Of a stretch of DNA of 64,000 nt, positions 39,304 through 45,213 are shown one piece after another. Source of the stretch: Promethearchaeota archaeon (GTDB lineage Archaea > Asgardarchaeota > Lokiarchaeia > Sigyniarchaeales > SOKP01); the NCBI GenBank assembly GCA_016840085.1, contig JAEOTA010000084.1, positions 1 through 64,000 of the forward strand. Direction: 5' to 3'. Each line of letters opens with the position of its first letter. The stretch's first letter is position 1. Position numbers and translations under genes: made by a program. The notes under the pieces are model-generated. The model had not been told where the DNA came from and searched no databases. It worked only from the letters and a program-made list of their open reading frames with translations.

Positions 39304-41588
39304 TCTCTATATACTTCTTTAAAATTATCAGATAATTCAAATTGCACATTATTATGCCAAAATTTGAAATTTACTACATGAAAAAGCTCTCCTTTAAATT
39401 GTTCCTTTTCTTCATTTGTTAAAATATGTTTTAAAATCAGAGTTAAAGGTCTTGGTACTAGTTTTGAAAAATATTTGAGATCCCTATTTTTAATATAATT
39501 ATAAAATGATTCCGTTTCGTTTAAGCCAAAATATTTTATAGGAATTAATTCCTCTTTTTGATCATTTATTAAACTTAATTCAAGTTTAATCTTGTTTTTC
39601 ACATATTTAGGAAATTCCAAATTAATATTAATACTGTATTCATAATGCTTATACAATTCAATTAATTCTCGTTTTTCTTCAGCATTTGGGATTTTTGCAA
39701 TATATCTGTCTAAAAAATCAAGAAAATTTTCAAGTTTTTGTTCTTTTAATTCTCGTTCTTCTAAATAGTTAATAAAATCATTATGTATCTCAACTAAAGA
39801 CCAATCTTTATTGTTCTCTAATTTGAAAAATTTTTTTGCATAGTCATTTATCCACTCTAGTACATAAGATTTCCATTCTAGATTAATACCTCCTATACGC
39901 TTTTCTAGAAAACGATGAAATTTATTCGCAAAACTAACTGGATCAGTTAATTCTTTTTCGGGTTCTTCTTTTATATATCGATTAATCGTAGAATGCCTTA
40001 GTATATAACTTAATAAGTAATTTAATTCACTTGAAAGTTTTTTAAACTTCTCTGTATGCATTTTTATTGAATTTGCATTTTTTTCCATTTGAATTTCAGC
40101 AAAAGATATTAAATCCTCTATTTTTAATCCAATTTGGTCAAAAAACGAATCAATATTATTATCAACTAATTTTTTAAACTTTTCTTTAAGTTGATCTTCA
40201 TTAAATTCAAGATCATTCAACAATATTGAATTAAATTCAATTTTATTAAGAATATATTCTTTAAATTTCTCTATAAATCTCAACCCTAGAATTTTTGCTG
40301 GTTTTTGCTCATTATTGAATTTATTATTAAGGTTTTCTATTAATCGAAAAGTTAAATATTTTAATCGACGCGTTGATAGATATCTAGGGAGTGATTTGCG
40401 TATTAAACCAAGACTATTTTTAATAATTTCTGAAAAATAATTAAAAACAGAACTTAATTCCATAACTCTCAAATTCTCTTTCTTTATTACTGACTCACTG
40501 ATGAAATTGTAAGCTATTTGACAAATGTTATTAAAATCCTCATTCTCTAGCTTTCCCTTATTGCTAATAAATTGAATATATTTTTCTAATATTTCAGAAA
40601 GATCACCAATCTCACCAGAAGCTAGAAAATTCCTAGAATATTCTAAAAATTTATTCAAAAAACGCTCTAATTTTAGCAATATCTTATATGTATTTTGAAT
40701 TAACCATTGCGATGTTTCGGGTTCTAAGACATCTTTAGTCTCATCCTTAATATGATTGATTAGAAAAAGTATAATTTTATCCTGAGATTCATCTAAAGTT
40801 CCAATATTTGCTAAATTAATAAGATTTGTTCCAAGATTTAATGTTTTATCAACGATAAAATTAGCACTTGGCTCGGATATTATATATTTAAGGTGCTGTA
40901 CTGCTTGCTTTCCTTCAAATAGAGTCTTCAATTTTTCAAATTTATGATTCGATAAATTAATCTCAATCGGCTGTTTATGCCATAGAATCTCTATATTGGA
41001 TTTAATTTTTCCATAGATAGTTAACATTTTCTCTTCCGTTGGGAGGGATTTGCTTATCCCAATTAATTTTTTATTCCATTTATCTTCAATTAAATCTCCA
41101 TAGAGTTTTTTACTAAACCGAGTGGCGAATTTATCATATAATTTTTGCTTCTCTTCAACCTTAAGTTCTGGTCGGTTGGTAAACTCCTCAACCTCATAAA
41201 AAAGTTTGCTTATATTATCAATAGATGTTCTGGATTTATGTATATCCAAATATCCTGTTTCTGGTTTTAAAGCAAGCAATAAACTTTCACAATCTTTAAA
41301 TATACCCGGAATCAAAATCATTGATTTTGGAAATATGTTAGTTCGAGCACTTTTCTCATCAATATTAAATAAATCAAATTCAATACTAAATACTTCTGAC
41401 CCCGTATAATCTCTTAAAACTGCGTTGTACATCATTAAAAATTTTATAACTTCCTGGGAGAGTTCATTAACTTTTTGCTTTGTTAATCTTCCAGCACCGA
41501 TTACATCTCCAGTAATGAAATTATTTGGGGATGAATATCCGAATATTATAGAAAATTGATAATTTATAGATTCTCGTGTGGTTATCAT
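39291..41588 (-). CDS. large hypothetical protein (N-terminal alpha/beta domain, long helical region)
   Basis: 765 aa ORF. Confidence 0.8.
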   Translation of the reverse strand: MITTRESINYQFSIIFGYSSPNNFITGDVIGAGRLTKQKVNELSQEVIKFLMMYNAVLRDYTGSEVFSIEFDLFNIDEKSARTNIFPKSMILIPGIFKDCESLLLALKPETGYLDIHKSRTSIDNISKLFYEVEEFTNRPELKVEEKQKLYDKFATRFSKKLYGDLIEDKWNKKLIGISKSLPTEEKMLTIYGKIKSNIEILWHKQPIEINLSNHKFEKLKTLFEGKQAVQHLKYIISEPSANFIVDKTLNLGTNLINLANIGTLDESQDKIILFLINHIKDETKDVLEPETSQWLIQNTYKILLKLERFLNKFLEYSRNFLASGEIGDLSEILEKYIQFISNKGKLENEDFNNICQIAYNFISESVIKKENLRVMELSSVFNYFSEIIKNSLGLIRKSLPRYLSTRRLKYLTFRLIENLNNKFNNEQKPAKILGLRFIEKFKEYILNKIEFNSILLNDLEFNEDQLKEKFKKLVDNNIDSFFDQIGLKIEDLISFAEIQMEKNANSIKMHTEKFKKLSSELNYLLSYILRHSTINRYIKEEPEKELTDPVSFANKFHRFLEKRIGGINLEWKSYVLEWINDYAKKFFKLENNKDWSLVEIHNDFINYLEERELKEQKLENFLDFLDRYIAKIPNAEEKRELIELYKHYEYSININLEFPKYVKNKIKLELSLINDQKEELIPIKYFGLNETESFYNYIKNRDLKYFSKLVPRPLTLILKHILTNEEKEQFKGELFHVVNFKFWHNNVQFELSDNFKEVYREWMK

Positions 41589-41885
41589 AATCTAATTCTA
41601 ATAATAAATCTTAGATATTTAAATAATATATATTACGTATTAATCTTACTTACGCAACCCTTAAATAAATTTAAGTAGTTGTTTAATTATTTTTAAGTTG
41701 ATATAATATTAAAATTTACTTTTAATCTGCTTGGATATATAATAAATAGATAATGTGATAGATAAAAAATCTGAAATTTTTCTTATTAAAAATAGAGTAT
41801 ATTAATAAAAATATAATAAGAAAAATAATTATTATAAATAATATAATATAAGTTTAAAATTTTAAAGCAGTATTGGTGTAGGCTT

Positions 41886-42290
41886 ATACAATTCGGGTCG
41901 GATTTAGGAATTAACCAAGAAGATATCGAAAAGATTAGCCCTCAAATCACATTTATAACATCAAATGCGGATATAGAGGCGATAGCTCTAGTTAGTTCCG
42001 AAGGTTATCAAATAGCATTCTCTGCATTACCCCAATATCATGTTGATGGTGATCAATTTTGCGGACTTGCTAGTGCTTTATTGATGACAGGAAGATCAAC
42101 TATTCAAACTCTATTCCAAGAAGATTTAAGTGAAGTGATTGTTCGAGCCGAAAATGGTTATATTGTCATTACAAATGCTGGTAGATTAGTTATTGTTTGT
42201 GCGGGGACAATTATTGATACATTAATGAAGACAGTAAAGGTAATGAGGATCGCCGCCAAGAACCTATACAAAATTTTTGAAGAACACTAA
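41886..42290 (+). CDS. roadblock/LAMTOR domain protein (full frame starts at ATA 41886)
   Basis: Frame is open upstream of the called 42081 start: IQFGSDLG..ADIEAIALVSSEGYQIA..FCGLASALL..EVIVRAENGYIVI, a complete roadblock pattern; GGTG-type SD before ATA. Confidence 0.85.
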   Translation: MQFGSDLGINQEDIEKISPQITFITSNADIEAIALVSSEGYQIAFSALPQYHVDGDQFCGLASALLMTGRSTIQTLFQEDLSEVIVRAENGYIVITNAGRLVIVCAGTIIDTLMKTVKVMRIAAKNLYKIFEEH

Positions 42291-42462
42291 TTAATGTTAT
42301 TCTTTCACTATTTTTTAATAATCTCTAATTAATCTTTCGAGTTTAGATTTTTAGTACACTTTTGATCGAACTGGTTTTTCAGAAAATATTTCAAGACATT
42401 CAACAAGTTTTTAAAGGTTGATATATTGTAAAGTTTCATAATAATAAGTAAGACTTTGGTTT

Positions 42463-42519
42463 ATGATTATGGCAACTGTAATATATTTTACTTGGCAGTG
42501 GCCTTGGTGGCGGCAATAG
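42463..42519 (+). promoter_or_regulatory. Trp-rich leader peptide ORF (TrpL-like) MIMATVIYFTWQWPWWRQ
   Basis: Four TGG codons within six, WWR motif, overlapping hairpin GTGGCG/CGCCAT, 128 nt upstream of trpB2. Confidence 0.8.
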
Positions 42520-42647
42520 CGCCATATGCATAGGATTAAACCAAACTAATATTCTCATTTTAATATTAAAATCTCCCTTAAATGCGCATTAATTTTATTG
42601 ATTTCCAATATTTTAATGAAACACTTTAAAAAAAATATGAACAGATT

Positions 42648-44063
42648 ATGGGAAATAAAATGGTAGATTATTTTAATGGAAGAGTTTTATTACAACCGAA
42701 TGAAATACCGAAAGAGTGGGTAAATATTTTACCAGATTTACCCTCTCCTATGACGCCCTTAATAAATCCAATGGATGGAAAACCAGCACCCCCAGAAATG
42801 GCGCTGGCAATATTTCCAAAAGAATGTGTAATGCAAGAAATATCTCAAGAACCAACAATTCCAATTCCAAAGGATTTGAGGGAAATTTTTGCTAGATCTT
42901 ATAGACCAAGTCCTCTTCATCGTGCTTTAGGATTAGAAAAATCGTTAGGAATAGAAGGTGATGATATAAAAATTTTTTATAAGAATGAATCATATTCCCC
43001 TACAGGTTCTCACAAACCAAACACAGCAATAACACAAGCATATTATGCGAAAAAAGAAGGGCTTGAAGAACTAGTAACAGAAACAGGAGCCGGACAATGG
43101 GGTTCTGGTTTATCTTATGGATGTAATTTATTTGGATTGAAATGTACTGTCTATATGGTAAGAATCAGTTTTATTCAAAAACCAGGTAGAAAGATTTTGA
43201 TGGAAGCTTACAATGCTAAAGTGCACGCAAGCCCTTCGAAGTTTACCGAATCAGGAAAAAAATTTCTTGAAAAAGATCCAGAGCATCCGGGTAGTTTAGG
43301 AATCGCTATATCTGAAGCATTAGAACATAGTCTAAAAAGTGAAAAAATAAAATATTCTCTTGGAAGTGTTGTAAACTTTGTACTCTTGCATCAGACTATT
43401 GTAGGTCAAGAAGCAAAATTACAATTAGCAAAAGTCGGTATAACTAAACCTGATATAATAATTGGATGTATGGGAGGTGGATCTAATTTTTCGGGGTTAA
43501 TGATCCCTTTTGTTAAAGACAAATTACATGGTAAACTTCCAGATCTTGAAATAATTGGTGTAGAACCACGAGCTTGTCCTAGCGTTTGTAAAGGACAATA
43601 TCGATGGGATTTTGGAGATACTTCTATGAAAGGTCCAATTGTAAAAATGTATACTTTAGGACACTCATTTATTCCGAGTCCAATTCATGCTGGAGGTTTG
43701 AGGTATCATGGAATGGCTCCAATAATTTCAATTCTTAATAATAACAATGTTATCTCTGCAACTATGCATCATCAAACAGAAGTTATAAAGTCAGGGCTTC
43801 TCTTTACTAAAGCTGAAGGAATCCTTCCTGCTCCTGAAACGGCTCATGCAATAAAAGAAACAGTTGATCAAGCATTAAAAGCTAAAGAAAACAATGAAAA
43901 GAAGGTCATCCTTTTTAATTTCAGCGGTCATGGATTTTTTGATTTACTAGCTTATAAACAATACATGTCTGGAGAATTGGAGGATTATGAATTATCTTCA
44001 GAAGAAATTCAAAAAGCTTTATCATCACGAGAAATGCCTAATATTGATGAATCTCAATTTTAA
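42648..44063 (+). CDS. trpB2: tryptophan synthase beta chain, type 2
   Basis: SPTGSHKPNTA (PLP Lys), TETGAGQWG, GGGSNF, HAGGLRYHG, PAPETAHA, SGHG; long TrpB2 N-terminus. Confidence 0.96.
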   Translation: MGNKMVDYFNGRVLLQPNEIPKEWVNILPDLPSPMTPLINPMDGKPAPPEMALAIFPKECVMQEISQEPTIPIPKDLREIFARSYRPSPLHRALGLEKSLGIEGDDIKIFYKNESYSPTGSHKPNTAITQAYYAKKEGLEELVTETGAGQWGSGLSYGCNLFGLKCTVYMVRISFIQKPGRKILMEAYNAKVHASPSKFTESGKKFLEKDPEHPGSLGIAISEALEHSLKSEKIKYSLGSVVNFVLLHQTIVGQEAKLQLAKVGITKPDIIIGCMGGGSNFSGLMIPFVKDKLHGKLPDLEIIGVEPRACPSVCKGQYRWDFGDTSMKGPIVKMYTLGHSFIPSPIHAGGLRYHGMAPIISILNNNNVISATMHHQTEVIKSGLLFTKAEGILPAPETAHAIKETVDQALKAKENNEKKVILFNFSGHGFFDLLAYKQYMSGELEDYELSSEEIQKALSSREMPNIDESQF

Positions 44064-44145: not shown

Positions 44146-45213
44146 TTGAACATAGTTTCACTCCTAATTTTTTGCATTATGTATTTTTATGGGATATTGC
44201 TCTTTTATATCACTTATTTAGCAAAAAAAAAAGGGGAAAAAGGAGCCTATATTAATAACTTATTTGTCACACTTGTATTTCTTATAGCACTTACGTTTTA
44301 TTTGTTTATTATTTACAATATTAATCCTTTGGGTCATGAGTTTGTAGCTTTTCCTTTTGATATTTTAATAATTTTTTTCATTTTTATATTCATTCCATTG
44401 TTTTTTCTATTGGTTTTTCGCGAAAAAATGAGAATTAAAGGAAGAAATTTAATAAACGGAAAAATAAAACTATATAAATCTGAATTACCACTAAAGTATG
44501 AAATTTATAGGAAACTAACACATTTAGTTGTTTTAAGTATAATTTTATTTTATTTCACCCTTGGGTTTTTAATTCAAGATTTTTTCGTCTATTTTTTGGA
44601 ACTTTTTCCACAATTTCAAACAAAAATGTTATATATTGGGGGAGATACTATGGTCTTTACTCAACATTTAGTTATTTTTTTAGTAGGAATCTCATTGATA
44701 GGGTTACTAACTGCAGATTTTATAAGAATTTTGATGCCTAAATATTATCCATTGAAGCCTATTAATCAATTATTACGTGAAAAAGAACTATATATGAGGT
44801 TAGGTCCTCAAATCTCTATGAGTATTAGCTGTTTTTCGACAATTATTCTTTTTGGTTATATCCAACCACTTGGACCCTTAATAATTTGTACATCAATGAC
44901 AATGGCAATTTTCGGAGATATAGCGTCCAATTTAATTGGAAAATATATTGGAAAAAAAAAAATTCGAAGTACAAATAAAACTTATGAAGGTTTATATGCG
45001 GGGATTATTACTGCTTTTATCTCTGGAATTATTATATTATTGCTGTTGAGGAATTTTTATGATAAAAATATCTTTTTTTTATTTCTGATTCCTACTATTG
45101 GTACTCTTATTATTGGTTTAATAGATTATTTGGATTTAGAAATTGATGATAATTTATCGTATAATTTCACTTTATCAACAATTTTTTTTTTCATTTCAAT
45201 TTTTCTGGTATAA
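44146..45213 (+). CDS. CTP-dependent polyprenol/dolichol/diacylglycerol kinase family membrane protein
   Basis: RKLTHL, FGDIASNLIG, KTYEG, IDDNL; multi-TM. Confidence 0.85.
   Translation: MNIVSLLIFCIMYFYGILLFYITYLAKKKGEKGAYINNLFVTLVFLIALTFYLFIIYNINPLGHEFVAFPFDILIIFFIFIFIPLFFLLVFREKMRIKGRNLINGKIKLYKSELPLKYEIYRKLTHLVVLSIILFYFTLGFLIQDFFVYFLELFPQFQTKMLYIGGDTMVFTQHLVIFLVGISLIGLLTADFIRILMPKYYPLKPINQLLREKELYMRLGPQISMSISCFSTIILFGYIQPLGPLIICTSMTMAIFGDIASNLIGKYIGKKKIRSTNKTYEGLYAGIITAFISGIIILLLLRNFYDKNIFFLFLIPTIGTLIIGLIDYLDLEIDDNLSYNFTLSTIFFFISIFLV

Follow-up and report, generated by a model that had tools for sequence, protein, structure and literature searches.

Ribosome-mediated attenuation is a textbook bacterial mechanism that relies on coupled transcription and translation. 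In the enterobacterial trpL (RF00513), hisL, leuL, pheL, thrL and ilvL leaders, a short ORF lies upstream of the regulated genes, carries clustered codons for the regulated amino acid and stops right after them. The regulatory codons make up the 5' arm of a hairpin, and the position of the ribosome sets the fold; the trp leader has, in addition, a 2:3/3:4 alternative and a GC hairpin followed by a U-run. Proteins can also take the sensing role. TRAP of Bacillus subtilis is a protein sensor of free Trp that binds 9-11 GAG/UAG triplets, and TrpY of Methanothermobacter is a DNA-binding repressor acting at initiation. For Archaea, a full-text search found no leader-peptide sensor within the searchable literature, and no archaeal case was known as of 2021 (PMC8448881).

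The locus described here is laid out like the enterobacterial leaders, from the short upstream ORF with its clustered codons and nearby stop to the hairpin built on those codons. It lies in a window of 64,000 nucleotides from a Promethearchaeota archaeon whose genome comprises 4.68 Mb in 89 contigs at 29.5% G+C and is 98.8% complete. On the plus strand, an ORF of 18 codons plus stop, MIMATVIYFTWQWPWWRQ, runs from ATG 42463 to TAG 42519. It is co-oriented with trpB2, as in the leader-peptide attenuator class, and ends 128 nt before ATG 42648 of that gene. Its Trp codons start at 42493, 42499, 42505 and 42508, four in six positions, and their clustering near the end of the ORF exceeds chance, again as in that class. 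The candidate sensor codons are UGG CAG UGG CCU UGG UGG (W11, W13, W15 and W16; 42493-42510, plus strand), and the segment that holds them, UGGCAGUGGCCUUGG, is nearly invariant within the genus. A preliminary description of this DNA had reported the ORF, its four Trp codons and its distance from trpB2, and had placed it in a GC-rich patch of AT-rich DNA. All of this was reproduced from the sequence: positions 42493-42527, with the Trp codons and the stop, have 60% G+C versus about 22% in the intergenic flanks, a level attained by just 0.4% of 35-nt windows.

The target gene, trpB2 (42648-44063, plus strand), encodes a TrpB-like PLP enzyme that matches NF009057 with 636 bits and TIGR01415 with 595 bits; TIGR00263, the model of trpB proper, gives 139 bits, under its cut-off. 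In alignments, orthologues start at the equivalent of ATG 42660 (MVDY..). This is probably the true start, giving a 140-nt spacer, and the first four codons from ATG 42648 probably belong to the 5' UTR and contain the ribosome-binding site. The upstream neighbour on the same strand is a roadblock/LC7 fragment that ends at 42290; of the domain, its ORF (42081-42290) encodes just the C-terminal half (Pfam positions 51-88 of 91), and a canonical start is missing upstream of it. Between trpB2 and pyrI, a 355-codon ORF (44146-45213) with no Pfam or NCBIfam match at E <= 0.001 occupies the spot where a pyrB-like gene might be expected.

A TATA-like box, TTTTTAAA, with an A/G-rich 5' flank lies at 42408-42415 (plus strand), 48-55 nt upstream of the leader ATG. 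All 17 of the 17 genus loci have the pattern (A/G)NTTTTTA(A/T)(A/T) at a distance of 48-58 nt from the ATG, and it is the sole conserved block in the 80 nt upstream of this codon. It fits the archaeal BRE/TATA consensus and is likely the promoter of a leader-trpB2 transcript, whose 5' UTR would then be about 25 nt long. The region from the leader to trpB2 is filled by covarying helices and has no TATA-like block of comparable conservation.

A tiny ORF in a GC-rich patch might arise by chance and have no function, and folding energy offers this reading an opening: taken alone, this copy of the leader RNA is predicted to fold no more stably than shuffled sequences (z = 0.17). What counts against chance is that the ORF is unique in the genome apart from a paralogue at the second trp locus, that it is conserved, and that the RNA around it covaries. 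All six frames of the genome together have just 17 clusters in which 6 codons include at least 4 TGG. Among the 54,178 ATG-ORFs of 8-60 codons in the whole genome, five contain W.W.W, and two of those five fall outside long ORFs. Both of these intergenic ORFs precede trp genes, trpB2 and trpDCFBAEG, which are the genome's only two trp loci, and the other short ORFs of the genome that end in W.W have no relevant gene downstream. An exact 15-mer scan of genome contigs returned chance bacterial matches and a single match in a Promethearchaeota archaeon, which is a true leader. The comparative sequence data refute the chance reading, whose probability is negligible.

Comparison with relatives shows how widely the leader is shared. 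The preliminary description had proposed a search for Trp-rich uORFs upstream of orthologous trpB2 genes, and they were found across the genus and the order. The gene itself is present in 31 of 41 related genomes, and an ATG-ORF leader precedes it at all 17 genus loci with upstream DNA (protein identity 79-91%). These genus leaders have 13-22 codons and the core W(Q/R)W(P/H)W.W, and they end 128-175 nt before trpB2. The stop comes 1-3 codons past the last Trp, N-terminal residues vary, and length differences amount to whole codons. In the order's other families (52-62% identity), the leader sequences are unrelated yet still end in W(A/P/S)W(R/H/Q), and Trp codons are the sole feature that they share with the leader described here. 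Two single-contig genomes of the order have leaders with the endings ..FMAWHSL and ..TWPWHLL. The regulatory codons and the frame are thus kept in orthologues while the remaining peptide drifts, another trait of the attenuator class.

A uniform test supports this picture in numbers. It scores ATG-ORFs of 6-60 codons in the 400 nt upstream that have no more than 4 codons after a final W.W, and it is positive in 26 of 29 trpB2 upstream regions at the order level. Positives fall to 0 of 29 in the reverse complements of trpB2 upstream regions, 6 of 5800 in shuffled ones and 2 of 510 in other windows of the same loci. Across the phylum, a sample of 161 genomes includes 115 with trpB2; inspection of 40 upstream regions revealed similar leaders in at least five further families and several other families without them.

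The conserved frame bears on a reading in which UGG-N3-UGG is an RNA or DNA site for a Trp-activated protein, such as a TRAP-like or TrpY-like repressor, and the ORF is incidental and untranslated. Several features give it substance, since UGG triplets at 3-nt spacing resemble the spaced triplets of TRAP, the core 15-mer does not vary even where a synonymous change could occur, and the leader ATG has no obvious Shine-Dalgarno sequence. The likeness to TRAP/anti-TRAP control of trpEDCFBA in B. subtilis extends to trp control at the RNA level through spaced triplet repeats; here, however, the four UGG triplets stand in a conserved reading frame and no TRAP homologue (PF02081) was found in the 98.8% complete genome. 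Lineages whose sequences have otherwise diverged retain an in-frame ATG, an open frame and a stop 1-3 codons past the last UGG; indels are whole codons, and only the P3-forming half of the AATGCGCATT palindrome is conserved. TrpY shares the pathway and the domain of life, but the element here lies within the transcript and behaves like an ORF combined with an RNA fold. A protein-binding site is, on this evidence, highly unlikely.

A functional peptide, either a small effector rich in Trp or a TnaC-like arrest peptide responding to free Trp in the exit tunnel, has slimmer chances still. It would account for W-Q-W-P-W being kept at the amino-acid level in the genus and for the 45-63 residue leaders with a conserved N-terminus, MGFALT, in some distant families. 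Gln and Pro, however, are kept neither in the trpD leaders (WQWLW, WHWFW) nor in other families (WAW, WPWH, WSWRR), and Trp codons alone are universal. Moreover, TnaC-type logic, which is on at high Trp, is ill-suited to biosynthetic or salvage genes. The long leaders, 45-63 codons in length, precede trpB2 in L193, L194, L215 and L216 of other Asgard families; they share the N-terminus (P)MGFALT across two families and end in ..FWAWRWL.WP or ..SWHPW.SWRWQ. They may also encode a real small protein.

Structurally, the leader belongs to a larger RNA element that spans 42490-42645 on the plus strand. Helix P1 (42507-42525, plus strand) pairs GUGGCG at 42507-12 with CGCCAU at 42520-25 and has the stop codon in its loop. 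The preliminary description had drawn this hairpin over the last Trp codon and the stop, and it coincides with the minimum-free-energy fold. The 5' arm of P1 consists of the last Trp codons; therefore, a ribosome located there or on the stop would melt the helix. Such overlap between a helix and regulatory codons (1:2 type) is a feature of the attenuator class. P1 shows compensatory change in 6 of 7 pairs among relatives, and it is the sole helix altered when ribosome footprints are imposed by constrained folding in silico. Directly 3' of it lies a single-stranded box, CAUAGGAUU (42529-42537, plus strand; CA[A/U][A/U]GGAU in relatives), that is kept in both trpB2 and trpD leaders.

Two further helices follow in this copy. 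P2 (42547-42568, plus strand) pairs TAATATT at 42547-53 with AATATTA at 42562-68 in the predicted fold, as in the nested stem put forward earlier, and the GGATT/AATCT portion of that stem can pair with one G-U. Relative to orthologues, P2 is shortened here by a deletion; 12 of 12 P2 pairs covary in 36 relatives. P3 (42587-42618, plus strand; z = -1.8) has an outer stem at 42587-91/42614-18, an inner stem at 42596-600/42606-10 and the loop AUUUC. It is the best-conserved part of the element, with covariation in both stems, and its CAUUA/UAAUG becomes CUUUA/UAAAG in trpD leaders.

Relatives have two more helices: P0, in which a U6 tract pairs with an A6 tract and encloses P2, P3 and P4, and P4, itself a hairpin. 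This P0 domain stops about 20 nt short of an SD-like GGU/GGG and the start codon. Of the family consensus, neither P0 nor P4 is present in the window copy or in its closest relative, G024, which represent a reduced form that keeps the ORF, P1, the box CAUAGGAUU, a short P2 and P3. Because P0 and P4 are lost, the window's copy could be a decaying one.

Structural support for the element comes from covariation in relatives and not from single-sequence energy. Alignment A2, made with MAFFT from 10 genus leaders with the source genome left out, supports six helices: P1, P0, P2, P3 (two stems, counted as two) and P4. In A2, 93% of cells pair, versus 40-49% with slid partners, and its 9 compensatory pairs are matched by 0 of 500 shuffles. 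A covariance model, R1, built from the 10 other genomes of A2 with the source genome excluded, has only two matches in the source genome, the element at 42490-42645 (103 bits, E = 1e-17) and the trpD leader at C46:18085-18266 (53 bits). In 25 relatives, it finds one match per genome, always beside trpB2, and none in genomes that lack trpB2. When 36 family leaders are aligned to the model, 84% of cells pair versus 38-48% when slid, compensatory changes occur in 34 of 42 pairs, a result that 0 of 500 shuffles reach, and each of the six helices covaries; this alignment is fitted to the model and hence favours structure, with the slid controls and the independent A2 MAFFT result as guards. Stems around and after the ORF therefore covary, the second comparative sign that the preliminary description had suggested looking for. 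An Rfam cmscan of 41500-43000 with E up to 10 gave only a chance miRNA match and no RF00513 Trp_leader, T-box or riboswitch.

At the second trp locus, a paralogous Trp leader, MATEKIILFRWQWLWRA (C46:18058-18111, equal to L035:1014-1067), precedes trpD by 434 nt, and trpD opens the genome's only trp operon, trpDCFBAEG (C46:18545-25575). The two leaders share MAT..I.F.WQW.W.R followed by a stop, and each has a GC hairpin across the stop. Leaders with Trp codons precede the trpD operon at 7 of 8 loci having upstream DNA. Past its P4, the trpD leader continues with TAAAATGGTA, the very sequence that orthologues have at the start of trpB2; a duplication of the trpB2 leader may therefore have given rise to the operon leader.

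Comparison establishes the ORF, its exclusive link to trp genes, its conservation and its covarying fold, and from these we infer that the leader ORF is translated, which way regulation runs and what its output is. The element is very probably a cis-acting, ribosome-mediated Trp sensor of the leader-peptide type. The core idea of the preliminary description, that a Trp-codon leader ORF serves as a ribosome-dependent Trp sensor for trpB2, gains support in this way from sequence comparison alone. The transcript would begin about 25 nt upstream of 42463, and the 18-codon leader would be translated first. When charged tRNA-Trp is scarce, the ribosome would stall on the four UGG codons at 42493-42510 and hold the 5' arm of P1 (42507-12), so that P1 stays open. 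When Trp is plentiful, the ribosome would reach the stop in the P1 loop and depart, and P1 would close. Expression of trpB2, 140 nt downstream, would be on at low Trp and off at high Trp, and a diverged copy of the same device would control the trpDCFBAEG operon.

Compared with the enterobacterial trp leader, the element displays several distinctions. It has four of six testable features of leader-peptide attenuators and lacks two, the alternative helices and the intrinsic terminator. There is no sequence or structure homology to the enterobacterial leader, whose 2:3/3:4 alternative and GC hairpin with U-run were not found in this copy. Unlike that leader, the ORF is followed by a covarying multi-helix domain, the host has an archaeal RNA polymerase and archaeal termination factors, and one target is a stand-alone trpB2 in genomes in which no trpA or trpD was found.

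When every conserved helix was listed in the 10 and the 36 leaders, covariation was confined to P0-P4, P1 included, and no mutually exclusive antiterminator 2:3 and terminator 3:4 helices with covariation emerged. The preliminary description had paired CGCCAT alternatively with ATGCGC (42582-87), a proposal that fails because only 3 of the 6 pairs can form. In the predicted fold, it is replaced by GCAU 42528-31 paired with AUGC 42582-85; this long-range helix is compatible with P1, is unconserved and has no comparative support. Pairing between the box AAUGGA and the P3 loop UCCAAU shows one compensatory pair, is reached by 42 of 500 shuffles and is broken in the genome's trpD leader. A helix between AUGGCAACUG, at the conserved start, and CAGUGGCC was rejected as unsupported (157-202 of 500 shuffles). 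In constrained folding, a ribosome imposed on the first or the last Trp codon or on the stop left the downstream structure unchanged, and the predicted accessibility of the trpB2 start region was likewise unchanged by ribosome position.

No terminator-like site of the bacterial type occurs in 42250-42750, in line with the earlier statement that a classical terminator (GC hairpin plus U-run) is missing. Neither the U-rich stretch said to follow the nested stem nor the leader-trpB2 spacer as a whole contains five or more T in a row. In GC-rich relatives, the spacer includes a terminator-like signal, a GC hairpin with U5-6 behind it. The case for U6 as a terminator is weakened because the U6 of relatives is one strand of the covarying helix P0.

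For the output step, premature termination or 3'-end formation in the spacer by an archaeal, hairpin-independent route is ranked first, at somewhat less than an even chance, with U-rich DNA and/or aCPSF1/FttA as candidate agents. A close second in this best-guess ranking is that the stalled ribosome stabilises the mRNA. This idea forms part of a possible, though doubtful, reading that keeps the same sensor and dispenses with termination: the stalled ribosome would shield the mRNA from 5'-to-3' decay (aRNase J/aCPSF2), or the fold would govern trpB2 translation initiation. This copy has neither an alternative helix nor a terminator, about 20 nt separate the end of the covarying P0-P4 domain from the SD-like GGU/GGG and start codon, and mRNA protection requires no RNA switch, all of which favour such an output. 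It is harder to reconcile with a predicted start-region accessibility that is indifferent to ribosome position and with the hairpin and U-run in the spacer of GC-rich relatives.

Bacterial parallels exist for control without the classical switch. In ermC/ermA induced stability and in tnaC, as proposed here, a stalled leader ribosome alters the fate of the message without a classical attenuator switch, but those stalls arise from a drug or from free Trp via the nascent peptide, and not from scarce charged tRNA. In mycobacteria, polycysteine leaderless short ORFs act as Cys-responsive attenuators (bioRxiv 10.1101/834739), and there too operon genes are controlled by runs of specific codons in very short, unannotated ORFs, with no textbook terminator involved. 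These ORFs are bacterial and leaderless, whereas the archaeal leader has an inferred 5' UTR of about 25 nt and a structured RNA after the ORF.

The RNA that follows the leader allows a bolder reading, which is rather unlikely: a two-part archaeal riboregulator without a bacterial counterpart. The ORF would report tRNA-Trp charging, the four-helix domain would be a second sensor or a factor platform that binds Trp, uncharged tRNA-Trp or aCPSF1/FttA, and output would proceed by hairpin-independent termination or processing. In this domain, P0 encloses P2, P3 and P4, and an invariant UUCCAAU loop is complementary to UUGG; the domain is partly kept even in a genus without the leader ORF. If true, this would be the first attenuation mechanism in Archaea, unlike the E. 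coli paradigm. The ribosome-mediated Trp sensor, whichever its output, would itself offer a testable handle on archaeal transcription-translation coupling and on termination or processing (aCPSF1/FttA).

The regulated gene fits a role in Trp supply. TrpB2 enzymes show high-affinity use of free indole with serine or O-phosphoserine. Among 24 other genus genomes, trpD and trpA were found in just one or two, and 16 retain trpB2 and its leader; therefore, TrpB2 stands alone in most species of the genus. By analogy, TrpB2 here is probably a Trp-regulated, indole-salvaging enzyme induced by Trp starvation, and its stand-alone state bears on the auxotrophic, syntrophic lifestyle of these organisms.

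As in enterobacteria, the host genome also has a His version. A candidate His leader (C50:92171-92272, equal to L180:1312-1413) ends in ..MVHHWLHH plus stop, 87 nt before hisIE, and is kept in two relatives (..LHHWLHHE and ..SHHLHHK). Two hairpins come after it: a conserved one of 10 bp, UUCCGAUGAA/UUCAUCGGAA, whose 5' arm starts 6 nt past the stop, and a second one that adjoins a GGGGGG Shine-Dalgarno sequence. The genome-wide codon-run screen also gave Cys, Thr, Val and Arg leader candidates, which precede unrelated genes, and the His candidate alone stood. The His leader supports a general leader-peptide strategy in the lineage, to judge from its sequence. Conserved Trp and His leaders would show that Asgard archaea sense amino acids by translating tiny uORFs. 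Asgard archaea are the closest prokaryotic relatives of eukaryotes, and their leaders would bridge bacterial attenuators and eukaryotic uORF control.

Within the same family, two sister genera (6 genomes; L191:520-575 and L186) have kept the roadblock-trpB2 order and lost the Trp leader ORF, so the leader ORF is dispensable. One of them keeps only helices P3-P4 of the RNA (34 bits). A genus that lacks the ORF and the 5' arm of P1 and still keeps trpB2 fits a closed P1 meaning off better than the reverse, although this is a weak argument. The leaderless sister genera form a natural deletion series that is potentially informative on the default state of the switch.
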